64,000 nt of DNA from IMG/VR virus record IMGVR_UViG_3300045988_180775. One strand, given 5' to 3'. Positions 17,681 through 53,260 of the stretch are shown here, one piece after another; position 1 is the first letter of the stretch; the number at the start of each line of letters is the position of its first letter. The DNA comes from a virus. Both the position numbers and the translations under genes were made by a program. Under the pieces are notes generated by a model. It searched no databases, was not told the origin of the DNA, and saw nothing but the letters and a program-made list of their open reading frames with translations.

Positions 17681-17713
17681 AAAAAAACGCCGCCCATCTG
17701 GGCGGCGTTTCTT
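17681..17713 (-). terminator. rho-independent terminator after sigma gene
   Basis: aaaaaaacgccgcccatctgggcggcgtttctt. On minus strand the stem is followed by TTTTTTT. Confidence 0.75.
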
Positions 17714-18855: not shown

Positions 18856-18884
18856 ATTATACCACACAATAGCTTACTTGTCAA
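18856..18884 (-). promoter_or_regulatory. sigma-A-type promoter (TTGACA-17-TGGTATAAT) upstream of sigma gene
   Basis: Minus strand TTGACAagtaagctattgtgTGgTATAAT. Member of a 7-copy promoter family. Confidence 0.65.
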
Positions 18885-19956: not shown

Positions 19957-20311
19957 TTTGGTTGCTTCCTTCTCGCAGCAGAATCAAATTCATGACCCTC
20001 CATACCGTCCAGATACACAGATGGCGAACTATGCTTCTGCTGGTGCCGTGCAGGTCGGCGATTTGCGAAAACGTCATTCTGTCACGAAAATACTTTTGGA
20101 CGATATCGCGGTTTCGCTCAGGAAGTGTGTCCAGCGCTTCATCGAACATCTCGTTAAAGCCCGGTGTAAATGAAATTTGATTCTTACCCCAGGCTGAAAT
20201 TTGATTTTTACACCAGGCAAAGGATGTATCGTACATAATGGCCGCCTTCCGCCACTCCTCCGGGGCGAACTCAGGCTTGTTAATCTTGTCTGTCGTTTGT
20301 TTCTTTGTCAT
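19913..20311 (-). CDS. small sigma-70 region-4-like HTH protein (132 aa)
   Basis: LPERNRDIVQKYFRDRMTFSQIADLHGTSRSIVRHL resembles sigma region 4/ECF HTH. Trimmed to ATG 20311 with RBS GGAAGGAGAAACAAAA. Contains a 24-bp tandem duplication (20171-20218). Confidence 0.45.
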   Translation of the reverse strand: MTKKQTTDKINKPEFAPEEWRKAAIMYDTSFAWCKNQISAWGKNQISFTPGFNEMFDEALDTLPERNRDIVQKYFRDRMTFSQIADLHGTSRSIVRHLCIWTVWRVMNLILLREGSNQNAAPQTGGGTEGGY

Positions 20312-21404
20312 TTTTGTTTCTCCTTCCAACAATCTCTCTTCGTGAGCTGCGCCACAGCATGAGCAGCATCTCGCTGACCGGTCTGGTTCGGTCCTTCCTC
20401 ACGGCTTTCCTCACGCATCGCAGATGCCCGCCGTCCGGGCAAAGCACACCGACGCCGTATGGCACAGTATCCTTCACCGCTTCGAAGACGTCTGCGGGCA
20501 TAACGTAGTAGTTGTAGTCCGCGATGAAGTTGTGCCCGTTAGGAGATTTGAAATCCTCCACAGAGGACTTGACCTCGTAGGCGTAGAAGTCCCCCTTCTC
20601 AATGCCGGAGGTCGAATTGTTGAGCGGCTGAAAGCGCATATAGTCCACGCGGATTTTGTGGTTCGTAGAGTAGTCGAATGTGACCTCTCTCGCCCAGTAG
20701 ATGCGTGGGTCGTTGCGCGGGTCGATGTATCGCTCCAGCATGGCAGAGAGCTGGCGAGTGTGTTCCTTCCGGGTGAAGGCATCACTCGTTTCCGGACAGA
20801 ATTGAGCTGGCTTTCCAAGGATGAAATGGAACGGCAGAGCCTTTTCCAGTACGTCGATAATATTCTGAAGGGTCCCCTGCCCGCATTGGCGCAGATTCTT
20901 CAGTTTGCCGCTCTCTATCAGTCGAACAACATCGCCGATACTTTGGGCACCACTGAACATAAGGCAGTTCTTGGTGCGAGTCGAGAAATTGAGGCACTGA
21001 AACGGAACAGAATCGCACAACTCCTCGATTTTTTTCCGGTTGCCATTCTCAATGGCTTCCTTCAAAGCAGAGGCGAGAGGGCTGCCTGCAAACCGGCGCA
21101 TTTCTTTCAGGATACCCCCCGCATATTTGGGGTGACGCAGCCTCCTTATGGCGAGGTCGAAGCAAGAGTGGAACTTGCCGATGTCAATTTCCAGTGCGTT
21201 TGCGCATTGTGTTGGTGTAAGACCGTCGCGGTAGCGTTTTAAGATAGCTTCCCGCTCCAACTCAGGGAATGTGGCGATGGCAGCGTCTACAGCTGCGTCG
21301 AAAGAGTCGGAGAACTCAGCACACGGCATACACAAGCAATCCTGCATCAAATTCTTTCGCCATTCTACTGACGAGCGAAGCAGGAAACGCTCCTCAGTGT
21401 TCAT
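20280..21404 (-). CDS. three-part protein: sigma region-4-like HTH, then RNAP alpha-CTD-like helix-hairpin-helix, then C-terminal PD-(D/E)xK-like domain
   Basis: EREAILKRYRDGLTPTQCANALEIDIGKFH (region-4-like). LNFSTRTKNCLMFSGAQSIGDVVRL...LKNLRQCGQGTLQNIIDVL (alpha-CTD-like). GDFYAYEVKSSVEDFK (D..E.K nuclease-like). Confidence 0.55.
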   Translation of the reverse strand: MNTEERFLLRSSVEWRKNLMQDCLCMPCAEFSDSFDAAVDAAIATFPELEREAILKRYRDGLTPTQCANALEIDIGKFHSCFDLAIRRLRHPKYAGGILKEMRRFAGSPLASALKEAIENGNRKKIEELCDSVPFQCLNFSTRTKNCLMFSGAQSIGDVVRLIESGKLKNLRQCGQGTLQNIIDVLEKALPFHFILGKPAQFCPETSDAFTRKEHTRQLSAMLERYIDPRNDPRIYWAREVTFDYSTNHKIRVDYMRFQPLNNSTSGIEKGDFYAYEVKSSVEDFKSPNGHNFIADYNYYVMPADVFEAVKDTVPYGVGVLCPDGGHLRCVRKAVRKDRTRPVSEMLLMLWRSSRREIVGRRNKNDKETNDRQD

Positions 21405-30439: not shown

Positions 30440-30474
30440 TGGAAAATCACATCCTCCGTTTACTTTATGCTTAT

Positions 30475-30503
30475 ATTATACCACACATTAGCTTAAAAGT
30501 CAA
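30475..30503 (-). promoter_or_regulatory. sigma-A-type promoter (TTGACT-17-TGGTATAAT) for ung
   Basis: Minus strand TTGACTtttaagctaatgtgTGgTATAAT. Confidence 0.65.
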
Positions 30504-30536
30504 TTTAATGCGTAGGGAAAACGGCCTTCGCGTGAT

Positions 30537-32897: not shown

Positions 32898-33302
32898 TCA
32901 CTCAATAGAGTCTTCCGGTTCCAAGGCCGCTCCGCAATGCACGCAACGGTTCGACGTTGCGGCGCAGCATCCGCAGAGGACATCGGCCGGAGTATCAGCG
33001 CAGGTGATATGTCTGCCGCAGACCTGACAAAAGCCGTCTGAGAAAGCGTGGAGAACGATGCGGTTTCTACACTTGCGGCATTCCTGCGGACCGGCAAGGC
33101 GCTGGACCCGTCCAACTTGTCCATCCTCCAGCATGACCTTAATGCCGCGTGGATGTGTTGGACTGTTGGTGAGAATCCGCTTCACGACGCCGCGTGTGAG
33201 TTTACCTGTCGGCTGGTCTGCTTTGAGTACGATATCTACTGGCATACCTGGGTGAATGGATGCCCGTTTGGTACAGGTTGGCTCAGGGAATTTATTTGTC
33301 AT
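32898..33302 (-). CDS. YwbE (DUF2196)-domain protein fused to C-terminal zinc ribbon
   Basis: IHPGMPVDIVLKADQPTGKLTRGVVKRILTNSPTHPRGIKVMLEDGQVGRVQR matches YwbE family as I recall it. C-terminus CRKCRN...CQVCGRHITC...CGCC...CVHCG. Confidence 0.55.
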   Translation of the reverse strand: MTNKFPEPTCTKRASIHPGMPVDIVLKADQPTGKLTRGVVKRILTNSPTHPRGIKVMLEDGQVGRVQRLAGPQECRKCRNRIVLHAFSDGFCQVCGRHITCADTPADVLCGCCAATSNRCVHCGAALEPEDSIE

Positions 33303-35031
33303 TCTGAGGGACCCCTCTCACTTTTGCCTTTTCGATTTTTCCAATCACTTCTGTTACCTTCTGTGCAGTTAGAGGACTGGCAGTGGATTTATCCAGTGCG
33401 TCAAGCAGTTCCGGCAGCTCGCCAAGTTTTACGACCGGGATTTCGCTGTTGTCCGCATCCTGCAATTTTACATTTGGGTTGGCAAGGCAGATGATGCCGC
33501 ATACCGGAACATCCTCACCAACGATTTTCGACAGTAAGGCAGCGTGACGCTTAACTTGGAAGGCGGGGCTTTCCGTTGTGGTGAAATGCCCCGCATTTCG
33601 CATATCCCTGTCCCAATAGTTCGTGTCATCGACGCGGATGGTTCCAACGTAGTTTTTTGTCTCAATATGAATGACGCCGGCAGGCCCTACGAGAAGGTGG
33701 TCGATTTCCTGTGGCTCTTTCATATAGTCCCACGCGGCGATACGGATACATCCTCCGCTGTACTTGCTCACGCAGTCTGCCGCGATGCTGCGGTATGCGC
33801 TGTGCTCTGCAAGCCACCACTTGAGTTTGTAATTCACTTCCCTCTCACCGGCTTCGCCCAGTTCTCGTGCTTTGCGCTCCCGCTCCTCCTGCTCTTGCTC
33901 CACACGAGCGGCTTCCGCCGCCGCGCTGGCGATTTGATTGCGGTAGTTCGAGCACACGCTTTCCGCGAGACCAGTCACGCCTTCCAGTATCAGATTAAGC
34001 TGACTGTTGAGTTGAAAATGTTTGGCTTCTATTTCGCTGCGCAAGTGCAAGATGTTTTTCGATTTTTCGAGAAGCACACACTCACCGAGCGTGAGGTCGG
34101 AGTAAGCGTCGCAGAAGGCATCTGGGATATTGAGCCTGCACTTCTCCGTTATCCAGCTTTTTACTTCCGCTCTCTTCTGTGCTCTGACACAGCAATACTC
34201 CGGATGCGTCCGCTCCAGCGTGTCGATGTACTGTCGCGCATGGGCGATGATGCCGCTTCGCTCCGCAGCAATCGCTGCTTCCTCGGCCTGCTTCGCCTCC
34301 GCTTCCCGGCGTCTGGCCTCTTCCTGCCTGCGTTGCCGCTCCTCACGGATATGCTGCGCGGCCTTCCCGCTTACGCCAGGTTTGAACTCGTACATCTTGC
34401 CGGTCGCAAACAGGGCTTTCAACAGGACGGAGACATAATAGGCGCTATACGGAATGAGCAGGACAATGCCAAGGTAGCAGAACACATAGGAGACGACGCC
34501 GAGAGCCTTCCACAACGAGACAACCAGGACGAAAGCCGCAACGTAGGCGGCCAGATAGATAAGGCATTTTGTCCTCTGATTTTTGTCGCGAGTCATGGTC
34601 AAGAATTTGCTCTGCTCCACATAATCCGCATACTGTTCGTCCGATACGACTTTCTGCCACTCGTCCGCCATGCTGCGGTTTGCAAAGAAGAAGGTTCGGA
34701 GCATTAACAACAAGCCGATAACCGCCGGCAGAATGAAGGCCACAATGCAGACACAGAGGAGTACGAGCACAGCGCTAATCACCTTGAGGATACCGTGACC
34801 GAGCAGTTCGGCGAGCCATCCGCACAGCTGGGTCGCCAGAATTCCGCCCATGCCGATGCAGAAGGTCTTAGTGAGCAGCGCGGTTTCCTTTTTCAGAATT
34901 GCCTTGACTGTACTGTAGTATGTTTCCGCAGACCTTATCCCCTCGTCGTTCTCCACAATTTCCCGTGCGGCATCCATGTACTTATGAAGCCGGTCAACAA
35001 ACCAATCTTTGATGGAATCCAACATAAGCAA
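33292..35031 (-). CDS. NERD-domain membrane protein (4 TM, coiled coil, C-terminal NERD)
   Basis: TM helices near the N-terminus. C-terminal GEREVNYKLKWWLAE...EIDHLLVGPAGVIHIETKNYVGTI resembles nuclease-related NERD domain. Confidence 0.55.
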   Translation of the reverse strand: MLMLDSIKDWFVDRLHKYMDAAREIVENDEGIRSAETYYSTVKAILKKETALLTKTFCIGMGGILATQLCGWLAELLGHGILKVISAVLVLLCVCIVAFILPAVIGLLLMLRTFFFANRSMADEWQKVVSDEQYADYVEQSKFLTMTRDKNQRTKCLIYLAAYVAAFVLVVSLWKALGVVSYVFCYLGIVLLIPYSAYYVSVLLKALFATGKMYEFKPGVSGKAAQHIREERQRRQEEARRREAEAKQAEEAAIAAERSGIIAHARQYIDTLERTHPEYCCVRAQKRAEVKSWITEKCRLNIPDAFCDAYSDLTLGECVLLEKSKNILHLRSEIEAKHFQLNSQLNLILEGVTGLAESVCSNYRNQIASAAAEAARVEQEQEERERKARELGEAGEREVNYKLKWWLAEHSAYRSIAADCVSKYSGGCIRIAAWDYMKEPQEIDHLLVGPAGVIHIETKNYVGTIRVDDTNYWDRDMRNAGHFTTTESPAFQVKRHAALLSKIVGEDVPVCGIICLANPNVKLQDADNSEIPVVKLGELPELLDALDKSTASPLTAQKVTEVIGKIEKAKVRGVPQNDK

Positions 35032-35117
35032 TCACCCCCCAAAAACTATGTCTTCATTCTACCGTATATCTCGGTTTCTGACAAGCTGACTTTTTGGCTT
35101 CGCAGCTTCGCATTCGC

Positions 35118-35623: not shown

Positions 35624-37012
35624 TTAAGAGACTGTCATGTATTTGACATCCTGCTCCATTGCTTCATAGTACGGTATCTGCCATTCTTCGCACAGAATTC
35701 CATAATCTACCTGCGTCTTTTCCGAGACTGCTTTCAATGTATCGACTCGCCGGATATCCATAAGGGTTCCCACGGATATCAACAAGCCGTCTTTGGTCTT
35801 GAGCGGAAACAGCTTCGCACTCACATCGGTGTTCTTCGTATAGATGCCGCTCTCGACCGCCGCCTCTATAATGTCCCGCTCCTCCGCATCGACGTCGGTC
35901 TCTGCCAGCGTCCGCATCTGTGCAACGCCCTTTCTATCCAGCGTCAGCACATAAAGGTGGTCTAAGCCCTTTCCGAGATGCTCTTTCCGCTTCCGCCTTT
36001 TCAACTTATCGCTGTAAATGTCGGCCAGGTCTTTTGCGTTCTTTACAATGAGTATTCCGTTGTTTTGCTGAGAGATGGTTCCGGCTCTGTTCGCGTTTCT
36101 GGAAAATCCGTTTTTCAGTGTGATTTCCTTGGATACAATGTGCTCGTGCCAATCCATGCCGTTCGCGTTTGCGAGATAGACAATGTAGCTATGAAAACAG
36201 CCGATTAAAAGACCACTGAGCCTGCACATCATAAGCCCGCGTGCTGCCTGCTTCTTCCGCTCCTCGGACAGCGTTGACAGCTCGACCCGTTTAACTTCAT
36301 CGGACGAATAGAATATGGGGCTATCTTTCTTTTCCCCTCTGTTCCGAATCGTTATATTTCCGTTAGTTGCTTCCATTATCATCTTCATCAATGGCGTCCC
36401 GTCATCTGCTGCGCAGGTCTCAACTTCGTACTCGGCTTCGCAATCTTCCTCCTCGTAATCGTCCTCGTCATTGTCCGCACCATCTTCCCCAAGAATACTC
36501 TCGATGTCGTCGAGCCACCAGCGGTCGAATTGCTCGTCGGTGTTCATCTTCTGTTTGGAGGCTAAAACACTCTTCTCCGTTTCCTCCTCGCTCCTGACTA
36601 TAAACATCATCTTTCCGCTGATGCCAGCTTCCACCGCCATCTGCATTGATACTGTTGACCGAAGAAACCGTTCCGCGTAATTCGTTGAAAAGCGCGTGCC
36701 TTTGATTTGTACTCTTTCGGAGTCCTCGACGCTGAGATTGGAAAGCCATTGGATTTTATGTGAGCATTTCTGCTTGAGGTATTCGATGCCGATTGGTGTT
36801 ATAGTGAGATACGTCAGTTGATGTTTGCGAGATACGCCTTTGATGTTGTATGTCATTCGCCCATCACTGATGGTTCGTTCTTCCAACCCGCGTTCAATCG
36901 CACGATAGATGGCATCTTTTGAAAAGTTGAGCAAGAGAAGGGATTTCTTGGTCGCATAATTGAACACAAGCAGTTGGTATAAGATGCTTTCATAGCAGGT
37001 CAATCGCTCCAT
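35624..37012 (-). CDS. large hypothetical protein with acidic central tract (462 aa); possible replication/transfer initiator
   Basis: ORF with RBS AGAGAGGAGGTCTCAAAG. Poly-acidic segment EDGADNDEDDYEEEDCEAEYEVE. Sits directly downstream of an A-tract/palindrome region. Function not established. Confidence 0.5.
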   Translation of the reverse strand: MERLTCYESILYQLLVFNYATKKSLLLLNFSKDAIYRAIERGLEERTISDGRMTYNIKGVSRKHQLTYLTITPIGIEYLKQKCSHKIQWLSNLSVEDSERVQIKGTRFSTNYAERFLRSTVSMQMAVEAGISGKMMFIVRSEEETEKSVLASKQKMNTDEQFDRWWLDDIESILGEDGADNDEDDYEEEDCEAEYEVETCAADDGTPLMKMIMEATNGNITIRNRGEKKDSPIFYSSDEVKRVELSTLSEERKKQAARGLMMCRLSGLLIGCFHSYIVYLANANGMDWHEHIVSKEITLKNGFSRNANRAGTISQQNNGILIVKNAKDLADIYSDKLKRRKRKEHLGKGLDHLYVLTLDRKGVAQMRTLAETDVDAEERDIIEAAVESGIYTKNTDVSAKLFPLKTKDGLLISVGTLMDIRRVDTLKAVSEKTQVDYGILCEEWQIPYYEAMEQDVKYMTVS

Positions 37013-37303
37013 CTTTGAGACCTCCTCTCTTTCATTCTTTTACAAGCTCTTTTACCGAGCCGTTCGGCGGCTGTTATCGACCTCTGCCTATGCGGAAATA
37101 AGCGCCTGATTTCCCTGGCAGTTACCAAGATGGCGGCAGACGGCTCAAAAGTCCAAAAAATGATTGCTTTCTCCGCTGACTCCTGAGCATGACGGAAAAT
37201 TCCGCTGACCGTGCTTCGGAGCCTTTGCAAAATCACGGTTTTTACAGCTTTTTTGTATACAAATAAACCGTTTTTGCGAATGTCGGTTTTTTTGTATGTT
37301 TTT
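37013..37303 (-). other. A-tract/palindrome-rich noncoding region (candidate origin: oriT or ori)
   Basis: 290 bp without ORF. Repeated AAAAACGG/AAAAACCG units, perfect palindrome TTTGTATACAAA and multiple phased A/T tracts. Confidence 0.4.
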
Positions 37304-38122
37304 TCAGCCGTTTTTTGCCGGTGAATCAGCAAAATTCTGACGGAAAATTTGAATGATTTCGTGCGGATTTGCGGCCGAAAATTTGTCCGGACAGACGCAA
37401 ATGTAGGTTCCTCGTGGGACATCATCGGAGCGAAAACCCGTCATGTGAAAGCTGGTTTTTTCTGCGGAATCATCGCAAAAAGTATGCAGGCAAATGGTGT
37501 CTGTGATTGCTTTTGTGTCGAAGTTGTCGCAATCAACAACGATATTTTCCGAGCAAGGAAACACAAAAATATAGTTGATGCTTTGACTTGGGAACGGGGG
37601 AATTTCGTTGTCAAGAAGCATCAGGCTCTCGTGCAAAGACTGCGTAAAAAAGGAGAAGAACCGCTTCAAAGCAGAGGCCTTTTCGATATGTGTAAGTGCG
37701 TAGCTTCGGCTCCAAATGACAGGCAACATCGGCAACTTTATTAGCAGCTTTCCCTCCGAGAGGAAAGTGCGGATTCCCTCGATTTCAGCGCCAAATGCAA
37801 GATAGTTTTCCCTCTGAACAGCTGCTTGCGAAAGGAGTCCGCCTGCGGTATTCGGCGCGATGATTGCCTGATACAGCGAGTGCGTGTGGACGAGTCCTGA
37901 AACGTAGAAGGACTTCACAATTTTCTGCGCGTCAATTTGATTTGCTTCACGTTCAAGAAAGCCATGGTCGTGCTCCACTTTTTCGGACAGTTTCAACACA
38001 CTTCCTGCAAGGTTATTCAGCGCATTTGCTTCCTCTGCAACTTCCTCTGCCACGGACTTTGCCTCGTCGATTTGCATGAGCGTCAACACGAATTCTTCAT
38101 CCGGCAAAGTTGAATTCACCAT
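37304..38122 (-). CDS. hypothetical protein (272 aa)
   Basis: ORF. 7-nt overlap with upstream gene. Confidence 0.55.
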   Translation of the reverse strand: MVNSTLPDEEFVLTLMQIDEAKSVAEEVAEEANALNNLAGSVLKLSEKVEHDHGFLEREANQIDAQKIVKSFYVSGLVHTHSLYQAIIAPNTAGGLLSQAAVQRENYLAFGAEIEGIRTFLSEGKLLIKLPMLPVIWSRSYALTHIEKASALKRFFSFFTQSLHESLMLLDNEIPPFPSQSINYIFVFPCSENIVVDCDNFDTKAITDTICLHTFCDDSAEKTSFHMTGFRSDDVPRGTYICVCPDKFSAANPHEIIQIFRQNFADSPAKNG

Positions 38123-38736
38123 GAGACATACCTCGGAATATTGTTATTATCCAGCGTACAGAAACAGTCAAATCCACGGTAAAGGCGGCTATTTTCGTCC
38201 AGGCATTCTTTCATAATTGCCTCGCCGGTTTCCTTATTATTCACCAGTGCGATGTGCGTAGCCTCCTCCTCAATGGCGCTCCGTTCGCATTTGCTTCGCT
38301 TGTAAACAACAGTCTTTGCGATGTCAACGGTGTTGCAGACGGCAATATCATACGGAATATACCGCTCCTCACCGTTCTCGTCCAACGTGCTTGCGATGAA
38401 GGAGAACTGCATCGGATGGTCCAGCGAGGTTACATCCAGAATAGCGTCGCATCCGACACGGGCAATCACCCAAAACGCACGGATTTTCGCCTTCACATAT
38501 TCCGGTCTCAGCCTCGAAGTTTTCAGGCCCATCCGGTGAAACCAAATCAGTTCGTAGTCCTGTTCGTCGATGTCAAGGACTCGTTGGCTTGCCAGCGCAT
38601 TGATAAGAAAATCAACCTGCGCTTGCGTAAGCTGCGAAGAGAAAAAGCGATACAACCCGCTTCGACTCAGCACAGTACATGACCTCATGAGACATTTCAA
38701 ATTGTCAACAGGAGCTTCATATAACATAGTCAGCAC
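38116..38736 (-). CDS. hypothetical protein (206 aa)
   Basis: ORF. Confidence 0.55.
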   Translation of the reverse strand: MLTMLYEAPVDNLKCLMRSCTVLSRSGLYRFFSSQLTQAQVDFLINALASQRVLDIDEQDYELIWFHRMGLKTSRLRPEYVKAKIRAFWVIARVGCDAILDVTSLDHPMQFSFIASTLDENGEERYIPYDIAVCNTVDIAKTVVYKRSKCERSAIEEEATHIALVNNKETGEAIMKECLDENSRLYRGFDCFCTLDNNNIPRYVSW

Positions 38737-38766: not shown

Positions 38767-41259
38767 TCAGCGCCTGAAGGCAGCGCAAGTACGCTTCTGC
38801 TCAATTCGGCGCTTCGCAGCGGCTCTTGCTTTGGGGTCAGTCGTTATCAGGTATTCTTCCGTATCCGTCGCCTTAACATTGATGAAAATGTGGTTCTCAT
38901 TTGCGGTCAGGAGACAGGTTCCACGGTCCATGGTTTTTACACGCTTGAGTTCTTCGTCGGTCAGACCAATCGCATCCGCAATCGCGTTTGCTTCCTCTTT
39001 TTCGCTGCGCAAAATCATTTTGATTTTGGCGTTTCCAATGATGGCGGTGCCAATTCCCGCAGAGAAGAAGTCTGCGATATTCTGCGTGGCAGCGACGGCG
39101 CTTCCGCCGAAGCCTCGGATAGTACGGAAGATTTCGACCACGAAATTGGCGGCTTCGATAGGTGCATCGGAGCAGACCAAGCGCCAAGTCTCGTCAATGA
39201 AAACACACTTGTTGACGTTCCGATTTTCTTTGCATTTATCCCAAACATAATCCAATGCAAGGAACATAGCCACAGGAAGAAAGTCTTTCTGCGCATCGGA
39301 AACATCCAGCACTACGAACTTGTTGTTAAGGTTCACATTGGTTTGCGCGTTGAACGAAGATGCAGAACCTGTGGTGTATCGCGTCAGCAAACGGCACAAA
39401 CGATTTGCTGGTGCGCCCATCTTTTCCAGCTCGGAATATACGTCCGAAAGGATAGGCATTTTGCGGTATTTCTTCTTGTCGTTGGGGTCCAACAGGCTCT
39501 TGTTCTTATGGGTAATTCCGAAATTGCCGTAAGTTTTCAGCAGCGCGTCATCCACATACTGCACCTCTTCTGGCGTCATGTCCGGGATAATCAGCTTAAA
39601 GAAAATGAGAAGCTGCTGGATTTTCTGTGCCAAAATCGAGCCGGAAGTGACCAACGCACCATCGTCATCGTAGACGTTGCCCTCTTCCTTCTTGCGTATC
39701 TCCATGATATTGATATTCTGTCCGGAACCGGGTTTGATTTCAATGAAACTGCCCCCAACCTTCTCACAAAGCGGCAGGAACTCCTTGCCTTTCAGCGGCG
39801 CGATAATGAAGGTTTGAACCCCCTTCTCCCGCATTCTCAATGCCAGAACCTGCGTGGTGAAGGTCTTACCGGAGCCAGAGGAGCCGACAATATTGATGTT
39901 GGCATTGATATATTGCTGGCGGTCGAAGAAGTTGACCAGAACCGGTGATTTGAACACATCATCCACGCCCAGCATCACGCCGTCCTTATCGCACAGCTCG
40001 GAAGATGTGAACATATAGGTGGACGCAAAATCGGAACACAGAATATTTCTGCGGCTCTTACGGAATAGGTTTTTGTCATACTCACATACGGGAATGGTGG
40101 AGCGAAACGCTTCTGCTTGCTGGAAAGTACAAGGTTTAAGAGTCAATTCTCTCTCAATGAAAATGCGCCGGATTTCCTTGAATTTGTAGTCAATTTCTCG
40201 CTCGCTTTCACCTGTAATAGTGAGCATTGTAGACATATAGGCAAATTCGTCGCCGGCCGCGAGAGAGCTTTTCAGATAGTATCCTGCGTCCACCGCAGCC
40301 TTCACATCATCGTAGTCGCTACTGGTGGTTTCTGTGTTGCGGAAGCGCATTGCATTGAACCGCAGGCCATGATGCAGTGCAGTTTGAATCTTCTCCGGTG
40401 AAATCTTCTGAAGCCAAACATCCACATCAATCCCCTCCCCCAGTCCTGCCAGCAGCTGCATCCAGCCGCCAAGAACGCGCACAGGATAGGCATTGCTCGG
40501 AAGATAGCAGCACATATAGTAGATGCCATCCACGATGATATATCGGGGACTTGACTCCGTATCAATGCAGTACGGAGCAAGCACATCATTGACAGGAAGA
40601 TGCGCCGCGCTATCTCGCGTGAAGTCGATGTTTGCCGCCGTATATCGGGCAACAACATCCGCCATTCTCTCGTCAAACGGGTGGTTCGCGCTCTGTGCTC
40701 TGGACATGATATCGTAAAGCGTGGAAAGCACATAGACGTCATCGTGAGGCCTTGAAATCATAATGTTGCCGCAGGCCCGAAGGTTGCTTCTGATGGCGTC
40801 CTCCTGTCTCGTAATGGTGCTTCTGATTTCATTCCATGATGGTGAACGATGTGCGAATCCCTCTTCTTCCTCGTACTGGAATGCGAGAAAGAAGCGACGG
40901 GATACGCCTTGCGATGTGCCAAATTCTGACATCATGTCGATTTGCTCCCGCATCAGTTCACGGGTTCCTTCATTCTTTTCATGGCGCACACTTTCCACCA
41001 TGCCGGAAATATAGTGTTCGACATTTGCGCGATTGGACAGAACTTTGATTTGGACAACGCTTGGAAACGAGCGGATTGCGGCCGCATATTGTGCCGTAAT
41101 CATGTTCTTATCCTCGTTCGACCGTAAGCCGTAGTTAATGGGAGAGAACTCCATCAACTTCACAAATTTCCCGTCTTTCGTGACGATGATGCCGTCACGA
41201 ACATCGCTTATGGGCGAGAAAGATTGGCAGCTTATCACCTGTTTCAGTTTTCTGGACAT
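38767..41259 (-). CDS. T4SS VirB4/TrsE/TcpF-family conjugative ATPase
   Basis: Walker A IVGSSGSGKTFTTQ, Walker B CVFIDETW, about 830 aa. Typical size and position in Gram-positive conjugation loci. Confidence 0.9.
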   Translation of the reverse strand: MSRKLKQVISCQSFSPISDVRDGIIVTKDGKFVKLMEFSPINYGLRSNEDKNMITAQYAAAIRSFPSVVQIKVLSNRANVEHYISGMVESVRHEKNEGTRELMREQIDMMSEFGTSQGVSRRFFLAFQYEEEEGFAHRSPSWNEIRSTITRQEDAIRSNLRACGNIMISRPHDDVYVLSTLYDIMSRAQSANHPFDERMADVVARYTAANIDFTRDSAAHLPVNDVLAPYCIDTESSPRYIIVDGIYYMCCYLPSNAYPVRVLGGWMQLLAGLGEGIDVDVWLQKISPEKIQTALHHGLRFNAMRFRNTETTSSDYDDVKAAVDAGYYLKSSLAAGDEFAYMSTMLTITGESEREIDYKFKEIRRIFIERELTLKPCTFQQAEAFRSTIPVCEYDKNLFRKSRRNILCSDFASTYMFTSSELCDKDGVMLGVDDVFKSPVLVNFFDRQQYINANINIVGSSGSGKTFTTQVLALRMREKGVQTFIIAPLKGKEFLPLCEKVGGSFIEIKPGSGQNINIMEIRKKEEGNVYDDDGALVTSGSILAQKIQQLLIFFKLIIPDMTPEEVQYVDDALLKTYGNFGITHKNKSLLDPNDKKKYRKMPILSDVYSELEKMGAPANRLCRLLTRYTTGSASSFNAQTNVNLNNKFVVLDVSDAQKDFLPVAMFLALDYVWDKCKENRNVNKCVFIDETWRLVCSDAPIEAANFVVEIFRTIRGFGGSAVAATQNIADFFSAGIGTAIIGNAKIKMILRSEKEEANAIADAIGLTDEELKRVKTMDRGTCLLTANENHIFINVKATDTEEYLITTDPKARAAAKRRIEQKRTCAAFRR

Positions 41260-42218: not shown

Positions 42219-43472
42219 TCAGGCGTTGGGGAAATTCATGGGGCCTTGGGTGCCGATGCACCGGCACAGAATCATCCCGTTGTCCAAATAATTAAGAACC
42301 TTCAGCCGGACGGTCGAACCACGCGGAGGCTCGCTCCCAAGGAATTTCGCAGGCATATTGTTCACGAGTACGGGTAAATCGTACATCTTGATATACGCCA
42401 ACACATTGATATTCCCAGGCTGTTTCTTACTCGCAGCCACGGAAGATACGATGCCAAACACGATGGAGCCGATTGGAAGAGCGCTGCGCATTTGCTTCGC
42501 ACGCTCCAACTCAGGCTGCTTACAGTTCACCTCGACGATGTGGTGGCCGTCTTTCTCTTTGATGATTTGCTCTACCTGAACCATAATTTCCTGCCCCACC
42601 TTGTATTTGGTTCTCGCGTCAACAAGGTACTCGAAAGTCAGGGCGTGGAGCGGCACCCGCGTATCGACTCCGCCAACCACAACGGCAATGCTGTCGCGTG
42701 CCACAGAGGTAATCTGAGCACGAACAAAATCGCCTTCCTGAATGCGCGGGCCATCACCGTCAGGTCGGTCTCCGTAATTTGTCTCCTCAATAATGTCGAG
42801 CGCAGCCTTACGGGACGCGACAATGACATAAGCCGGAACTCCGGCTTCAGCATCGGTGCTTTCATCGACCTGGATAGTCGTAATCACCATCGGCACATTC
42901 AGGGAATACAGCTTTGCCGCCATCGTAGCGCAGCGGTTGACGTACTCTTCACGACCGGCCTTAGTTTCCATATTTACCGTCGCCATATCAATGGGATTCT
43001 TCTGGTAGAACTCGTCAAAGGGAATGGAAACCTTGTAGCGGCCCTCTACGAGCGCGATAATCATGACACAGGGAACTTCCGAATCCACATCGTTTCGCTG
43101 CTCGATATGAGAGACGAGACCATTTACGATGCTGTGGTTTTTAGCTGCGACTGTCAATGAAGAAAGTCCGATAAGAAACTCCTGATAGGCACGGACAGAC
43201 TCACTTCTTTCCGCTCTCCGCCGTCTTGCCTCCCTCAGTACATCAGCACGGGTAGGCTTCCCTTTGGGAGCGGTTTCCTCCGCGCCGGACTGCTCAGGTT
43301 CGTTTCCATCAAGCCCCTCAAAGAGCGCCTGCATCTCTGCGTCCTCTTCATTGGGGGCCTGCGTTTCAACGCTCTCTGCGGTGGAGGATTGGACGTTGCT
43401 CTGTTCCTCAGTGGGAGCCTGCACTTCAGCGTTTTCCTCGATTGAAGCAGTTGCTCCATCTTTTTTGACCAT
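42219..43472 (-). CDS. S1-domain RNA-binding protein (two S1-like repeats) with acidic N-terminus
   Basis: GDFVRAQITSVARDSIAVVVGGVDTRVPLHALTFEY...VGQEIMVQVEQI (S1-like) and a second GSIVFGIVSSV...GSTVRLKVLNYL repeat. Confidence 0.55.
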   Translation of the reverse strand: MVKKDGATASIEENAEVQAPTEEQSNVQSSTAESVETQAPNEEDAEMQALFEGLDGNEPEQSGAEETAPKGKPTRADVLREARRRRAERSESVRAYQEFLIGLSSLTVAAKNHSIVNGLVSHIEQRNDVDSEVPCVMIIALVEGRYKVSIPFDEFYQKNPIDMATVNMETKAGREEYVNRCATMAAKLYSLNVPMVITTIQVDESTDAEAGVPAYVIVASRKAALDIIEETNYGDRPDGDGPRIQEGDFVRAQITSVARDSIAVVVGGVDTRVPLHALTFEYLVDARTKYKVGQEIMVQVEQIIKEKDGHHIVEVNCKQPELERAKQMRSALPIGSIVFGIVSSVAASKKQPGNINVLAYIKMYDLPVLVNNMPAKFLGSEPPRGSTVRLKVLNYLDNGMILCRCIGTQGPMNFPNA

Positions 43473-43524
43473 TGCTATTGCCTCCTTTGCGTAATTTGGG
43501 GCATCTTAATGCCCTACACTTTTA

Positions 43525-43552
43525 TTATTACAACCTTTCGTTCAAAAGTCAA
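43525..43552 (-). promoter_or_regulatory. sigma-A-type promoter (TTGACT-16/17-TAATAAT) for S1-domain gene
   Basis: Minus strand TTGACTtttgaacgaaaggttgTAATAAT. Confidence 0.45.
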
Positions 43553-43629
43553 TTTTTTCGCAGATTTTCAAAAGCAAAAGGCCTATGAACGGAATCCCGC
43601 TCATAGGCCTTCTACTTGCTTTTCAATGA

Positions 43630-44151
43630 TTACCCGATGATAGTGAGTACATAGGACGATTCGATGTCCGTTCTCGGAATCAATCCGACAATGGAACTGC
43701 GGCTGTCAAGGCTGTTGTTTCGATTATCCCCCAGCACAAAGTAATAGCCATCCTCCACGGTGAGAGGAAACGATATACCATCGTCATATTCGATGTTGGT
43801 CGGGGTATTCGTGTACGGTTCACTCAGCGCGATTCCGTTGCGATAGACCACCCCCTGTTCGAAATCAATGTCGATGGTATCACCGGGGCAACCAATAATG
43901 CGCTTAACGATATTTTCATCCAGACCGCTCGAATTGCAAACAACAATGCTCTCAAACTCCAGATTCGGCTTAATGTGATTTGTCAGAATCACACTATTGT
44001 CCGCAAGCGTCGGCACCATAGAAGGGCCGGACACCACAACAACATTGAACAGGATTCGGAACAAAAGAAGAGCGATAATAAGCCCCTCCAGGGAACCCTT
44101 GAGCACTTCACGGCTCCATACAGTGCGGTTGGTGAGATTTTGTTCTTTCAT
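43630..44151 (-). CDS. type I signal peptidase (S26 family)
   Basis: Catalytic-Ser box GPSMVPTL and GDNRNNSLDSR box. Trimmed to ATG 44151 with RBS AGAGGTGATTCCA, because track GTG 44160 lies too close to the TSS. Confidence 0.85.
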   Translation of the reverse strand: MKEQNLTNRTVWSREVLKGSLEGLIIALLLFRILFNVVVVSGPSMVPTLADNSVILTNHIKPNLEFESIVVCNSSGLDENIVKRIIGCPGDTIDIDFEQGVVYRNGIALSEPYTNTPTNIEYDDGISFPLTVEDGYYFVLGDNRNNSLDSRSSIVGLIPRTDIESSYVLTIIG

Positions 44152-44176
44152 TGGAATCACCTCTTCTTTACGCTTA

Positions 44177-44205
44177 TATTATACCACACTTTATCTTATT
44201 TGTAA
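44177..44205 (-). promoter_or_regulatory. sigma-A-type promoter (TTTACA-17-TGGTATAAT) for signal peptidase
   Basis: Minus strand TTTACAaataagataaagtgTGgTATAAT. Confidence 0.6.
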
Positions 44206-44293
44206 AGTATCGAATGAAGTGACCTTACATACAACGGCGCAAGCAAAAAGGCACGTCAACGAAATGTTGGCGTGCCTGTGGCCTGTGCTGATA

Positions 44294-46570
44294 TTACCGC
44301 ATCCCCGGCAGCTTCCCCGACATTCTCGGTTTCCCTGTAGTCGGCGTAGAACTGAAGCTGCGCTTCGGCGGTGCTGGGCGCTTCCCACCCTGCGCTACAT
44401 CTTTTGCTTCGGCAGGCGTGGGGGCTTCCTTCGGTTTGCTTATGTCTTCCTGCTGCGGTTCTGTTTCGTCCCCTGCGCTTTCCAAGTCGATATCTGCGTT
44501 CGGCTTTGCGTCAACGGACAGTACCGGCTCCTGCTGTGCAGGTGGTGCTGAAGGTTCGACCGCCTGCTCCTCGTCTGTCTCGTCTACCTCGATGTATTCA
44601 TCACCGCAGTCCTCGACCTCTATCACATCGTCATCGGAGCCTTTCTTATTTATCTCCTTGACGTATGCAATAACGGCATCCTTGCTCTCTTCCCAAATGC
44701 TTTGTACTGGTATCGAGTTGCACATCCCCGTGTACGAACGGTCTACCTCGTTGATGTGCGGATGCGTGATATTGAAAGCGTCCAGAATATTTTGCTGACG
44801 CTGATAAAACAGCTCTCGCCCCTCTTTGTCGGTAATGGGTGGGATTTCACGGAAGTCAAAATTGCTGAGTTTCTTGGCGTCCGTATGAAGCGTGTGGGGG
44901 TATTTTTTCGCAAGTATAGGGTTATGCCCCTGAAAGATAATGATGCTGTCGTTCTTCCCCATCTTAAATGCTTCATCCAGCCCCACCAGCGCACGCTTAC
45001 CTTCGCCAGATGACCAGTTGTGAAGGAACTCGTTGTTTTTCAGCAGCGTTTCCATCGCCTTATGCTGGTTGGTCCGGACGTTTACGGTCGTATCACCGAT
45101 ACGAGAGGACACCATTTTCGCGGTAAATTCGTCGTTGATACCAAGGCTCACTAATGTCGAGCAGTTACTCAGGAGGGTTGCCCAGGTTGTCTGGTAGTTG
45201 TTCTGAAGCTGGGTGATGTCCTGAAATATCATACAGACATTCATGGCACGCTTTCGAATCGTCGCCATTTTTCGGTCAAAATCCGGAATCGTGCCGATTG
45301 ACGGAAACTCGTCCAGCAGGAAATCAACAGGGACATCGAGCTTACGGTCCTTGCCGTTATTATCCGCGTCGTTGATAAGGGTAATGAACAGCATGGAGAA
45401 GAACAGGGACACGATGAATTTGTAGGTGTCATGGCTGTCAGGGAAAATGCAGAAATAAGCGCAAGGCTGCTTTCCTGGAAGAGACATATCAATGCAGGGG
45501 GTGGAGAGCAGCGTCCGCACTTTTGCGTCATCCATAACCCCGATATCTGCCGCAAGGTTCACAATGAGGTTGCCGCGAAGATTCGGTGAGGACTGCTTGA
45601 AGGTCATGTACGGTCCGACGCAGGGCTGTTCCTCCGGCGTAAGACTGTCCGGGTCAAACATCATATCCAGATATGCCTCTCCCCCTGGGTTCTTGAGCAT
45701 CTGATGGACAGAGTTGATATTCTTCTTCTCAGGCGGGTAGTCATGTCCAAGCGCAACGCGCAGAAGGAGCGCCTTCAAAAGAGATTTCGGTCCGCTCTCG
45801 TAAATACCAGCACTCCCTCCGGCGTTGGAAATAATAACATTCGCAAAAATCTCTGCATTTTCGCCAATACGTTCTGGGTCTGCCAAAAGCGAGTCCATGC
45901 AATTCCAGCCGTCACTCTTGCTGATATTGTGCAGGTCGAAGCGTCGCACGACATATCCGTTGTCCATGAAGTACCTTGCCATATCTGCGTAAAGGCCGCC
46001 GTCCGGGTCTGTGAATATCAGGGACTCCCGGCGCTTTACCGCCTGGAAAGCGTAGTTCTTTGTAAAGGTATAGGTCTTGCCGCAGCCTGACGCGCCGATG
46101 ACGGCAATGTGCCGGTTCGCACGGTTCATCTTATCCTCTCGGAATACAATGGGGTAGCGGCCTGTCTCGTCCAGCTGTCCGAGGATAGTGCCAACTGCCT
46201 GCGGCTCATGCTGGATGATGGCGACATCCTCGTATTCTTTCGGGTCCTCAAAGTGCGCTTCTCCGTATGTCTTGCGGCCAATCGCCATGGAAAACAAGCG
46301 ACCCATCTTATCGACACCCGCTTCCTCGGAAGCGGAGTATGCCATCAGGATGGAAATGGCAATACCGATGAAAAGAAAACAGCCAAGGAACATCTTCCAC
46401 GGAAAGCCGTACTCACCGAAGAGGCGAATCAAACGGAACGGGTTGAGCGTGGACTTCACTACGGAAATGCTGAGAACAATCCCCGTCATGTAAATAGACA
46501 ATATGAGGACTACCAGCAATGCGATTTTCAGTCTGCGAATCAGATTCTGCTGTTGTTGAGTCATGGTCAC
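44294..46570 (-). CDS. type IV coupling protein (VirD4/TraG/TcpA family)
   Basis: N-terminal TM helices, Walker A VIGASGCGKTYTF, Walker B region FLLDEFPSIGTIPDF, about 758 aa. Confidence 0.9.
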   Translation of the reverse strand: MTMTQQQQNLIRRLKIALLVVLILSIYMTGIVLSISVVKSTLNPFRLIRLFGEYGFPWKMFLGCFLFIGIAISILMAYSASEEAGVDKMGRLFSMAIGRKTYGEAHFEDPKEYEDVAIIQHEPQAVGTILGQLDETGRYPIVFREDKMNRANRHIAVIGASGCGKTYTFTKNYAFQAVKRRESLIFTDPDGGLYADMARYFMDNGYVVRRFDLHNISKSDGWNCMDSLLADPERIGENAEIFANVIISNAGGSAGIYESGPKSLLKALLLRVALGHDYPPEKKNINSVHQMLKNPGGEAYLDMMFDPDSLTPEEQPCVGPYMTFKQSSPNLRGNLIVNLAADIGVMDDAKVRTLLSTPCIDMSLPGKQPCAYFCIFPDSHDTYKFIVSLFFSMLFITLINDADNNGKDRKLDVPVDFLLDEFPSIGTIPDFDRKMATIRKRAMNVCMIFQDITQLQNNYQTTWATLLSNCSTLVSLGINDEFTAKMVSSRIGDTTVNVRTNQHKAMETLLKNNEFLHNWSSGEGKRALVGLDEAFKMGKNDSIIIFQGHNPILAKKYPHTLHTDAKKLSNFDFREIPPITDKEGRELFYQRQQNILDAFNITHPHINEVDRSYTGMCNSIPVQSIWEESKDAVIAYVKEINKKGSDDDVIEVEDCGDEYIEVDETDEEQAVEPSAPPAQQEPVLSVDAKPNADIDLESAGDETEPQQEDISKPKEAPTPAEAKDVAQGGKRPAPPKRSFSSTPTTGKPRMSGKLPGMR

Positions 46571-46578: not shown

Positions 46579-47904
46579 TCACCGTCCGCCGTAAGCGGGC
46601 CAGTATGTATTTTGCGCGAGATTGCCTCGCTCCACAGAATCTCCGACGCCATCACGCGGACGCTCAAATTTCAGGCACCACAGGAGTCCGGCCTCATACG
46701 CGCCATCTGATGTATTAGGCAGGTCCTTGATGGCGTTCCACGCTGTACGCTCCGAAGATTCGATTTCGGTCTTGAAAAACCAGAGCTGTCCTTCTATAGA
46801 GTCTTCAGCAAAACCATTTTCCTGCAAAAAACTCAGTAGTGCTGTCTTTCTGCTATAGGACCACTGGCATAAACCATAACCTTCGCCCAGTCCATCTCCG
46901 TATGCGTTTTTATCCTCATGTCTTGCCGGGTTAAAACCAGATTCATTTTGGATATTTGCCATAACCCCGCAGGCGGCAGCATTGTTCAGGCCAAGCTCCT
47001 CTGTCAGGAAAGAGAACACCTTCTCCTTGTTGGTGCCGCCCTGGATTTCCCAAAATGCTGTTTCAGGATATTCTACATGAACGATATAGCCGTTTTTCGC
47101 GGCTTTGTATGTGGTCGATGCTGTATAGTGGTTTTTTGCAACACCGCCGCCTGGGATTTGACCGCCGCCAGTTGTGTTGCCCTCGACCGTGTACCATCCA
47201 GTTTCATCCACCTCAACAATGATACCGATGTGATTAAAAGGCTTAGCCAGCCTTAGATTACCAGTCTCTGAAAAAAACATAAGGTCGCCCGGAACTGGTG
47301 TATAAGAACCACCGAACGGGGTTGTGCTTCGAACGGGATAGTATGCGTAGCCGTATCTTCCCGTGAGTTTCTTGAACATACTTGAGCAACTGGCATCCTT
47401 TGGAATTGTATTTTCCAAAAGGTCACATTCATTTGCGCACCAAGAGACAAACGCCGCGCACCACTGTCCGGAACGGTGGCTGCCATAGTACCAGTCGTTG
47501 TATTTGACATAATTCGAGTTCGGCGGGATTTCAATGGAATCATCCAAGCCGAGTTGGCTGAGCGCGACTTCAACGATATTGCTGCCATTTCCGCCTTCTC
47601 CAGTCGAAACACCAAGGTATTGCTTTGTGGTCAGAATGTTATTCCGATACCACTCTTCCTGATACCCTGCTTGCCGCTCATATTCGTTTCCGGTGTCGTC
47701 ATCCGTCCAGTCCTTCTCAAGATACTTATTATAGTCCCAGCCGAAGGAGGTTTCATACGATTCCTGGACTTCATCCCAATGCTCACCAAATGCGCCGCTT
47801 ACGCTCTTGCCGTCAATGGCAAATACGGTAGCTGTCATGCAGGATACCGAGAGAATACCGCACAGCAGTGAGGAAAGCATCTTTTTCCAGATATGGGTAG
47901 TCAT
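46579..47904 (-). CDS. secreted bifunctional cell-wall hydrolase (CHAP domain plus lysozyme-like domain)
   Basis: Signal/TM N-terminus. CHAP Cys motif GQWCAAFVSWCANE with downstream His. C-terminal GYGLCQWSYSRKTALL lysozyme-like pattern. Confidence 0.75.
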   Translation of the reverse strand: MTTHIWKKMLSSLLCGILSVSCMTATVFAIDGKSVSGAFGEHWDEVQESYETSFGWDYNKYLEKDWTDDDTGNEYERQAGYQEEWYRNNILTTKQYLGVSTGEGGNGSNIVEVALSQLGLDDSIEIPPNSNYVKYNDWYYGSHRSGQWCAAFVSWCANECDLLENTIPKDASCSSMFKKLTGRYGYAYYPVRSTTPFGGSYTPVPGDLMFFSETGNLRLAKPFNHIGIIVEVDETGWYTVEGNTTGGGQIPGGGVAKNHYTASTTYKAAKNGYIVHVEYPETAFWEIQGGTNKEKVFSFLTEELGLNNAAACGVMANIQNESGFNPARHEDKNAYGDGLGEGYGLCQWSYSRKTALLSFLQENGFAEDSIEGQLWFFKTEIESSERTAWNAIKDLPNTSDGAYEAGLLWCLKFERPRDGVGDSVERGNLAQNTYWPAYGGR

Positions 47905-52027: not shown

Positions 52028-52438
52028 TCACCAAGTAAAATCTGGATGTGCGGGGTCCCATTTGACCCCGTTCAACGAGTTGTATGCTGCTGAAATGACC
52101 AGCGGCAATAAGTACAACGCCATGAGCGCAATCAGGGACATCTTTATCATGGAGAAGCCCCTTTCCGCATCTTTCTCAGACCCAAAAAAAGCAATAAGGC
52201 CCCCGACAGTAATCGTGACAAGTGCGAATGGGGCTGCCATGCTGAGAATAAATTTGTAGGTTGCGCTGATGCGGTCCCGATACTCCCGCATAGACGAATC
52301 AGATACATTCGTACCAAACTCTACATCCGGGGACCACGGGTCTGCCGCAAACACAGGCGCAGAAAGCGTCAGGCTGACCGACACGATGCAGAGAGCTACT
52401 AAAATGGGAATCAAAAATCTATGAATTCGTTCATCCAT
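52028..52438 (-). CDS. small polytopic membrane protein (136 aa) of T4SS block
   Basis: Three to four hydrophobic helices. Confidence 0.5.
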   Translation of the reverse strand: MDERIHRFLIPILVALCIVSVSLTLSAPVFAADPWSPDVEFGTNVSDSSMREYRDRISATYKFILSMAAPFALVTITVGGLIAFFGSEKDAERGFSMIKMSLIALMALYLLPLVISAAYNSLNGVKWDPAHPDFTW

Positions 52439-52624
52439 AAAAAATAGGGCAAGGATACCCCCGCCCTACAAAGCCGGCGGAAGAACTGCCCGTCCTCCTT
52501 TCCGAAAATAGAAAACAAAAGAGGGCTTGCGGAATCCGGTGTGGGCCGGACTCCTGACAAGCTCTCTCTATATTGACAACCACAAAGCAAACGCAGTGGA
52601 TGACCTGCTCAACAGCCTGAGCTA

Positions 52625-53038
52625 TCAACCAAAGATTTGGTTCGTGGAGTTGTCAGCAATATTGCCAATCGCGCCGGTAACGGTCGTAACGAACAGCGGA
52701 GCAAGGAAGATGACGCCAACAACAAACAGAATCTTGATGATGTTGTCCTTGCACTTTTCCATGCCCTTTTCCGTACCGAGCAGAGCCTTCACAACATTGA
52801 AGCCAATGCCGACCAGAGCCAGAGGCGCGGTAATCGCTTGCAGCATATCCCAGATGCCCTTCAGAATGGTCTTGCCGGCCGACGTGATTTGCTGGAAGCC
52901 CTGCGCGGTTTCCGTATTCGCCGCAAAAGCGGTGACGGTAAACATAGCAGCCGTCAGGCACACGACCGTTGCTAAAGAAACGATGCGGGCGCGGACGCGC
53001 TGTCTCTCTTGAATTTGTTCGAGATTGCTATTCATCAT
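52625..53038 (-). CDS. small membrane protein with VirB2/TrbC-pilin-like topology (137 aa)
   Basis: Trimmed to ATGATG 53038 with RBS AGGAGCG (the track start is a TTG in the leader). Charged N-terminus, two hydrophobic segments, Gly-rich core. Confidence 0.45.
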   Translation of the reverse strand: MMNSNLEQIQERQRVRARIVSLATVVCLTAAMFTVTAFAANTETAQGFQQITSAGKTILKGIWDMLQAITAPLALVGIGFNVVKALLGTEKGMEKCKDNIIKILFVVGVIFLAPLFVTTVTGAIGNIADNSTNQIFG

Positions 53039-53199
53039 AGAAAAATCGCTCCTGTCTCGCGCCCAGAATATTTTTCGCTCAAAGTCAAATCCCTCACCCA
53101 CATGGGGAATCCAGCTCCGGGCCAGAGGTGCTTGACGCGGCGCTCCTCTTAGTCTAACTTTCCCACCCTTTCTCAAAAAGTCAAAATTCAGGCCTCCTT

Positions 53200-53227
53200 C
53201 TTATACCACACATGGGCAACACTTTAA
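53200..53227 (-). promoter_or_regulatory. extended -10 promoter (TGGTATAAG) with weak -35
   Basis: Minus strand TTAAAGtgttgcccatgtgTGgTATAAG. Shares the conserved TGTGTGGTATAA core of the promoter family. About 150-nt leader. Confidence 0.4.
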
Positions 53228-53260
53228 GAAGGTCGTGAGCGCAAAAAAAGAGCCTCTGCG

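Follow-up and report, generated by a model that had tools for sequence, protein, structure and literature searches.

Does the gap between a T4SS block and the gene that follows it hold the transfer origin (oriT) of the element, or is it a regulatory site? The gap lies in a 64,000-nt stretch of DNA from IMG/VR record IMGVR_UViG_3300045988_180775 (the window). An earlier note had read it as a candidate transfer or replication origin, with the adjacent 462-aa protein as a candidate for an unconventional relaxase or Rep. We find that the AT-rich repeat block at the upstream end of the gap is most likely a docking site for the adjacent protein, whose N-terminal part is modelled as a winged helix. 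That the array is also the place where an oriT complex assembles and the DNA is nicked is a reading that we put forward tentatively.

Gene context and limits of the gap

All genes around the gap are on the minus strand, with a Gram-positive-type T4SS block upstream (table 1). The order of the block is as follows: primase-like ORF, pilins, 881- and 441-aa ORFs, CHAP/lysozyme, VirD4, S26 peptidase, S1-domain protein, PrgI-like ORF, VirB4, 206-aa ORF and 272-aa ORF. Downstream of the 462-aa gene are a 161-aa ORF, a membrane-anchored NERD protein, a flotillin-like protein, an HTH protein, UDG and a UvrD helicase.

In the NERD protein (33292–35031), several membrane passes and a coiled coil make up the N-terminal half, and the C-terminal part is a NERD nuclease-related domain. 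The protein is kept two genes downstream of the 462-aa family in the diverged relatives L001, L005 and L013. It was considered as a MOBC-like nuclease and set aside because of the nature of its N-terminal half.

The gap is 291 bp long, from the stop of the 272-aa ORF to the ATG of the 462-aa ORF; the coordinates of the earlier note are exact, and the gap is non-coding and directly 5′ of the 462-aa ORF. Its GC content is 0.45 overall, 0.29 in 37225–37303 and 0.48–0.53 in the remainder, so that the description of the gap as AT-rich holds for its upstream quarter but not for the whole. Similarly, it had been called the only long AT-rich non-coding stretch near the T4SS; it is the longest gap there, but there are others of 133–233 bp (43473–43629, 44161–44293, 52439–52624 and 56559–56791), some with lower GC. 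More AT-rich 80-nt windows occur at several other places.

The sole ORF across the gap (141 aa, 37000–37425, minus strand) was rejected as a coding reading. In the relative L048, homopolymer indels interrupt its frame, which indicates that the gap is not coding, and other clades lack this ORF. No Rfam family reached its gathering score anywhere in the window, and the matches in the gap are at chance level.

Table 1. Features of the gap, of the adjoining T4SS block and of the wider element. Positions refer to the window unless a locus is named.
Feature	Position	Strand	Remarks
Non-coding gap	37013..37303	-	between the DUF6100-like 272-aa ORF and the 462-aa winged-helix ORF
AT-rich repeat block	37225..37320	-	GC 0.29-0.33; starts within the last codons of the upstream 272-aa ORF
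Repeat unit 1, CATACAAAAAAACCG	37284..37298	-	left arm of the inverted repeat; exact match to CATAYWAAAAAAC
Repeat unit 2, TATACAAATAAACCG	37256..37270	+	inverted orientation; right arm of the inverted repeat
Repeat unit 3, TATACAAAAAAGCTG	37245..37259	-	direct orientation; overlaps unit 2
Core AAAAACCG	37236..37243	-	fourth and most downstream copy
Other cores	37268-37275, 37284-37291, 37308-37315	-	
Two GTCAGCGGA copies	37172..37209	-	29 nt apart; kept in close relatives only
Ribosome-binding site AGAGGAGG	37021..37028	-	good RBS, 8 nt 5′ of the ATG at 37012; read from the sequence
462-aa protein	35624..37012	-	predicted MarR/PadR-like winged helix (about 1-100), acidic linker (153-195), alpha/beta C-terminal domain (about 200-461)
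272-aa ORF	37304..38122	-	last gene before the gap; weak homolog of the pMM35_02 DUF6100 protein (E = 5e-5), and synteny
206-aa ORF	38116..38736	-	at the position of DUF5697 proteins in relatives (synteny); window copy without Pfam match
VirB4-type ATPase	38767..41259	-	
PrgI-like ORF		-	in the T4SS block
S1 RNA-binding-domain protein	42219-43472	-	
S26 signal peptidase	43630-44160	-	
VirD4-type coupling protein	44294..46570	-	
CHAP/lysozyme	46579-47904	-	
881-aa ORF and 441-aa ORF		-	in the T4SS block; without assigned function
Two VirB2/TrbC-like pilins	52028-52438, 52625-53176	-	
Primase-like ORF	53261-54745	-	
Leader cores	2061-2090, 8296-8325, 12293-12322, 15483-15512, 17524-17553, 56646-56675, 61052-61081	-	
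300-aa HD-domain protein	L069:10916-11818 (IMGVR_UViG_3300029584_000162, about 74.7-75.6 kb)		~10 kb beyond window position 1

Structure of the repeat block

The block is composed of three copies of a 13–15-nt A-tract unit, CATAYWAAAAAACNG, arranged as an inverted pair and one direct copy. The arms of the inverted repeat (37257–37270 and 37284–37297) are 14 nt long and 93% complementary, with a 13-nt spacer. The core AAAAACSG occurs seven times in the 64-kb window; four of these copies are found at 37236–37315, all on the minus strand, and one of the four (37308–37315) sits inside the end of the 272-aa ORF, outside the gap. There are four matches to the wider pattern AAAAACNG in 330 nt, compared with 0.09 expected (Poisson P = 2e-6). 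The repeated units noticed earlier are thus confirmed as enriched and clustered.

Two other features reported for the gap are less distinctive. The perfect palindrome TTTGTATACAAA is present at 37252–37263, where it is created by the overlap of units 2 and 3, but it is not significant alone, as perfect 12-nt palindromes number 10 in the window and ~16 in shuffled sequences. Six A5–7 tracts are clustered within 85 nt, but the spacings between their centres (12, 11.5, 17, 21.5 and 10.5 nt) correspond to partial helical phasing only.

Inverted and direct repeats adjoining a conjugation gene are a generic feature of oriT and are found here. Reading of the gap sequence by eye gave no obvious match to nic cores of the MOBP, MOBQ and MOBV families, and neither a nick-site motif nor similarity to a known oriT was seen. 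The features of a replication origin proposed for checking in the earlier note are likewise absent. An iteron-type oriV has at least three regular direct iterons of about 17–22 bp by the initiator gene, whereas the units in the window are spaced irregularly (24, 16 and 32 nt) and in mixed orientation. The cumulative GC skew of the window is monotonic through 37 kb, with no inflection, a test weakened by the strong gene-strand bias.

Conservation of the repeat pair in relatives

In the relative L002, whose protein is 57% identical, the repeat/hairpin block is the only gap DNA significantly conserved with the window (local alignment z = 9.6). The members of clade B (L001, L009, L011, L049–L058 and L060) encode proteins 36–39% identical to the 462-aa protein. 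The inverted pair of the CATAYWAAAAAACNG unit recurs in L002 and in clade B with a centre-to-centre distance of 28–30 nt and a spacer of variable sequence. The left unit of clade B, GAAAAACATATTAAAAAACYG, overlaps the stop codon of the preceding gene, whereas its counterpart in the window comes only after the stop; the pair is thus conserved at the DNA level and not as coding sequence.

Enrichment of AAAAACNG is found in clade A, L002 and clade B (P = 1e-4 to 2e-2) and not in the more distant L012, L013 and L055; the repeat unit itself is absent from L013 and L055. Between the window gap and the clade B gaps there is no significant DNA conservation beyond the repeat unit and the RBS. The best-conserved portion of the clade B gaps is a 35-nt block, AAAACGGCGGGCTGGAGCTTCTTCGCCGCAACTGA (e.g. 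L009:9860–9900), with no clear counterpart in the window.

The 462-aa protein and its family

No match to the 462-aa protein was found in Pfam, NCBIfam or PHROG, nor by tblastn in PLSDB or INPHARED, and the locus has no megablast match. Close homologs are few. The gene falls into protein clusters of 800–1,400 member sequences, and a profile search of the whole library retrieved 265 representatives at the 50% level, mostly of 410–500 aa.

The AlphaFold model, built on an alignment of 50 family members, has a pLDDT of 86.7 and a pTM of 0.86, and it predicts an N-terminal winged helix with confidence. Disorder is predicted only at 153–195, and this region coincides with the acidic tract pointed out in the earlier note. 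In the relative L001 (L001:10001–11389, protein P0008), the acidic linker carries a threefold tandem repeat DDADVVCE (24 nt x 3), which indicates that the linker evolves by slippage. The C-terminal domain, searched as part of the full-length model, has no significant PDB match.

The earlier note had suggested examining the protein for relaxase and Rep folds. The protein has no HUH fold, three-His motif, Pfam relaxase match or Rep_trans domain (PF02486). The top fold lists for the full-length model contain no HUH, Rep_trans, RepA-type initiator or significant PD-(D/E)xK structure, nor any tyrosine-recombinase chain as expected for the MOBM/TcpM type; FokI is one low-probability Foldseek row. 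Of the features of MOBC/Replic_Relax proteins, the predicted N-terminal winged helix is present, but the C-terminal PD-(D/E)xK core with conserved D, E and K is not, and the Pfam Replic_Relax model touches one of the 50 family members.

Four positions are invariant across the 50 members: G74, G266, W287 and C440. Y278 is replaced by F in four members, and Y447 and Y448 also vary, with F/I and V/L in the homologs of pCY186 and Vescimonas (see below). There is no invariant Tyr, His or acidic residue and no conserved D...ExK motif. The protein is therefore not recognizable as a relaxase or as a Rep.

Homologs in distant replicons

In every context examined, the family occupies the same position: VirB4, DUF5697, DUF6100-like gene, gap, family member. 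The nearest annotated replicons by VirB4 are pMM35_02 of Vescimonas fastidiosa (142 kb, 38% identity) and pCY186 of Butyrivibrio proteoclasticus (186 kb, 29% identity). The gene order in pMM35_02 is PrgI-VirB4, DUF5697, DUF6100, 372-aa hypothetical protein, VirD4 and S1-domain protein. The 372-aa protein, encoded directly upstream of VirD4, aligns with the C-terminal domain of the family (hhalign probability 95%, E = 4e-8). The counterpart in pCY186 is a 395-aa hypothetical protein, encoded upstream of VirD4 with one small gene in between, that aligns with the family over 351 columns (hhalign probability 95.8%, E = 7e-9). The neighbourhood of the S1-domain gene and VirD4 is common to the window and pMM35_02, where an S26 peptidase is also annotated, at a separate place.

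The gap upstream of the family carries lineage-specific repeats. In pCY186 (NC_014390.1), four iterons of 22-bp period, with the core AAAGACGGTAA plus 11 nt, are located directly 5′ of the 395-aa homolog (L080:15990–16108), with one inverted copy 36 nt further on. They differ in sequence from the window unit, which fits sites co-evolving with their binding protein. Regular iterons are found only in this gap, and pCY186 has its own replication initiator and ParM. On the basis of this separate initiator and of the placement in the T4SS clusters of both plasmids, the sequences indicate that the family goes with the T4SS and not with replication. MOB-suite classifies pMM35_02 and pCY186 as non-mobilizable although both carry T4SS genes, and no annotated relaxase was seen in pMM35_02.

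The whole element and the search for a relaxase

The element matches IMG/VR contigs of 86–147 kb (loci L007, L010, L017, L069, L074, L082, L088, L091 and L093) and is also found within a 571-kb Oscillospiraceae contig. The breakpoints of the 136-kb and 142-kb contigs are compatible with a circle of ~140 kb, and we estimate the size of the element at about 136–142 kb. The element is found very often in assemblies from the human gut, and 1,091 blocks of the collection index one of its proteins. The element is listed as viral in IMG/VR, yet it encodes a T4SS, ParA, a serine recombinase, a sortase, a 1370-aa SpaA pilin and SLH-domain proteins. NrdD is encoded together with an activase-like radical SAM protein.

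Relaxases were searched for in the window and in about 131 of the 136 kb of the closest full-length contig, from 1 kb after its start to ~4 kb before its end, among ORFs of ~180–200 aa or more, some of which were skipped. No Pfam relaxase family was found among the ORFs scanned, and the statement that no canonical relaxase is recognizable in the window is upheld. Beyond the start of the window, the 136-kb contig encodes a YqaJ exonuclease, a RecD2 helicase, an SLH protein, a 300-aa HD-domain protein and a serine recombinase. RNase H, RecJ, RecG, ParA, a DpnD/PcfM-like protein, NrdD, the sortase and the SpaA pilin follow further on; a C5 methylase and a PDDEXK_2 protein are also encoded. No Rep was found in the element.

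The HD-domain protein, located ~47 kb downstream of the repeat array and near the RecD2 helicase and the YqaJ exonuclease, is the sole relaxase-like candidate found on the element, and a weak one. Its Pfam HD score is just above the cut-off (23.0 bits compared with 22), whereas the scores for TraI_2 (18.1 bits compared with 23.9) and NCBIfam MobH (23.1 bits compared with 200) are below threshold. It has no homolog in pMM35_02.

Transcription signals

All intergenic gaps of the window were read. Most of those other than 37013–37303 have obvious GC-rich terminators and TTGACA / TGnTATAAT promoters. The terminators are GC-rich stems of 8–12 bp with T-runs (e.g. 43473–43629, 44161–44293, 53177–53260 and 12206–12426), and the sigma-70 promoters are of the type TTGACT-N17-TATAAT with a TGn extension (e.g. 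30440–30536, 44161–44293 and 35032–35117). Neither a sigma-70 promoter nor a terminator was found in the gap, by scan or by eye.

Seven copies of a leader with the core GGTATGCTSAGRSCATACAAARGAAGTATC are present in the window, compared with 0 expected by chance; all are on the minus strand, as 30-nt cores of a ~110-nt element. In the five gaps read for it, the leader is 3′ of a GC-rich terminator and ends in a second hairpin followed by TTTTATATAT and an RBS. No Rfam family matches it. It may serve as a promoter or leader specific to the element, perhaps in connection with the element's own sigma-like proteins (17712–18884 and 20280–21404).

Function of the repeat block

The repeats and the partly phased A-tracts would constitute a cis-acting protein-binding array, with the A-tracts bending the DNA; the most likely binder is the predicted winged helix of the 462-aa product of the next gene downstream. 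Site and protein would then form a conserved accessory of one Gram-positive T4SS family in Oscillospiraceae and Lachnospiraceae. In an oriT, the winged-helix protein may mark the site and assemble the relaxosome there, like MobI for MOBH, TcpK on pCW3 and TraX on pAD1. The nick could be made by the protein's own C-terminal domain or by a nuclease encoded elsewhere, such as the remote MobH-like HD protein paired with the RecD2 helicase.

An oriT is favoured because site and protein have a fixed place in the T4SS cluster of replicons in which no relaxase or oriT is recognized. It is also favoured because the gap has no promoter or terminator signals in a genome otherwise rich in clear ones, and because an inverted repeat, direct copies and A-tracts are the typical make-up of an oriT. 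In addition, there are three precedents for an adaptor or a winged-helix domain reading oriT repeats beside its own gene (PMC13635750, PMC12857230, PMC6137059). Against an oriT, no nick-site motif or resemblance to a known oriT was seen, a strong hairpin is confined to the window, L002 and L001, and L013 and L055 lack the unit. The HD protein, as the possible remote nuclease, is also weak (MobH score of 23 bits against 200) and absent from the Vescimonas plasmid. On balance, the conservation of the repeat pair and the association of the protein with the T4SS somewhat strengthen the earlier note as far as a transfer origin is concerned; its second suggestion, a replication origin, we judge unlikely.

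Each known system resembles the present one in part. TcpK is a small protein that works with the atypical relaxase TcpM. It is a winged helix–turn–helix protein that binds repeated boxes in the AT-rich oriT of pCW3 of Clostridium perfringens and is needed for efficient transfer (PMC6137059). The predicted winged helix and the Gram-positive type of conjugation are thus shared; however, the protein of the window, at 462 aa, has a further conserved domain, and we saw no gene resembling TcpM.

In pAD1, the N-terminal winged helix of TraX, a MOBC protein, binds five direct repeats 70–120 bp from nic (PMC12857230). The predicted winged helix of the 462-aa protein aligns weakly with TraX of pAM373 (E = 1e-3, probability 20%), annotated as ‘replication-relaxation family’ and encoded near the coupling-protein gene, three small ORFs away. 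The alignment is confined to the winged helix, and the C-terminal PD-(D/E)xK domain of TraX is without counterpart in the 462-aa family.

In MOBH systems, oriT is found directly at the 5′ end of mobI, the adaptor gene, and far from traI (PMC13635750). The MOBH1 oriT–mobI arrangement of IncA/C and SXT/R391 elements resembles that of the window: the oriT there, and the repeat array here, lies 5′ of the gene for a DNA-binding protein (predicted here), and the relaxase, an HD-domain enzyme, is encoded far away, as is the HD/MobH-like protein of the element, with its separate helicase. Unlike in MOBH1, the HD protein of this element falls well short of the thresholds for MobH and TraI_2, and the host is Gram-positive; between MobI, which is of 23 kDa, and the 462-aa family no homology was detected.

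The Hodor megaplasmids of the gut, for which a short HD nuclease and a separate helicase have been proposed as the relaxase module (PMC12934698), are likewise conjugative elements of gut Bacillota without a canonical relaxase, and their oriT is predicted from context only. In the present element, unlike in Hodors, the repeat array is remote from the HD gene. Hodors also exceed 300 kb and carry Rep_3, whereas this element is less than half that size and no Rep_3 was seen.

The array could instead be an operator, a reading that likewise takes the units as sites bound by the adjacent protein. The 462-aa protein would then be a MarR/PadR-like regulator with no role in DNA processing, which autoregulates or gates T4SS read-through into the module made of the 161-aa ORF, the NERD protein and the following genes. 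The majority of MarR/PadR-type winged-helix proteins act as transcription factors on inverted repeats 5′ of their own genes, so the evidence fits an operator as well as an oriT. The fold matches of the predicted winged helix are almost all transcriptional regulators; however, the protein is ~300 residues larger than MarR/PadR regulators and has a conserved C-terminal domain. An inverted repeat 5′ of the regulator's own gene is the classic arrangement, but the site is 230–290 nt from the start codon and no promoter is recognizable in or near the repeats, whereas the other promoters of the element are textbook examples. The repeats are placed where read-through or termination after the last T4SS gene would be decided, and the absence of an invariant catalytic residue in the family is as expected for a regulator; the retention of the family inside T4SS clusters, by VirD4, in distant plasmids is not. 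We consider an operator the main rival, though somewhat less likely than an oriT.

It is unlikely that the block is simple punctuation, that is, a weak intrinsic terminator of bidirectional type ending the T4SS operon, followed by an unrecognized promoter and a long 5′ UTR. The inverted repeat can fold into a hairpin (−16.3 kcal/mol as RNA, z = −3.6; −9.2 kcal/mol as DNA) that begins ~10 nt past the stop codon and has U-rich sequence 3′ of it, but its stem has 3–4 GC pairs and a 13-nt loop, compared with the GC-rich 8–12-bp stems of the element's terminators, and the GC-rich stem directly followed by a U-tract that defines an intrinsic terminator is not found in the gap. Fold z-scores of −3.6 to −4.3 were obtained in three lineages, the window, L002 and L001, the last with a strong hairpin of 7/8-bp stem followed by UUUUUAUAU. 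In L009, L011 and L012, however, the hairpin decays while the A/T half-sites persist, which fits protein half-sites better than a conserved RNA stem. A good RBS is present, in favour of this reading, but the terminator scan made no call, and the third unit and the four AAAAACSG cores are left unexplained.

That the 462-aa family is itself a new non-HUH relaxase, serving a T4SS type widespread in gut Oscillospiraceae and Lachnospiraceae and nicking at the repeat array 5′ of its own gene, seems improbable, because no catalytic residue is conserved; the lack of an invariant Tyr, His or acidic residue makes it a poor candidate. A vegetative replication origin, with the winged-helix protein as iteron-binding initiator, is very improbable: repeats, an AT-rich stretch and an adjacent predicted winged-helix protein come together in the gap, the pCY186 homolog has perfect iterons upstream and the element has no Rep that we could find, but the skew shows no turn, the units are irregularly spaced and pCY186 encodes a Rep of its own. 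The remaining probability falls to explanations of other kinds.

Significance

The element belongs to the large replicons of Oscillospiraceae and Lachnospiraceae that carry a full T4SS and are nevertheless typed as ‘non-mobilizable’ by MOB-suite, because no relaxase or oriT is recognized in them. A conserved site and protein at a fixed place in the T4SS cluster provide a clonable candidate for the start of transfer. Should the site be an operator only, it would still be the first cis-regulatory handle on the conjugation system of this element. If it is an oriT, it would be of a known kind, with a partner protein family that is uncharacterized and has a C-terminal domain without significant match to solved structures. 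Typing tools could then score these elements as conjugative, and a new protein family would be gained, of oriT adaptors or, with lower probability, of relaxases.
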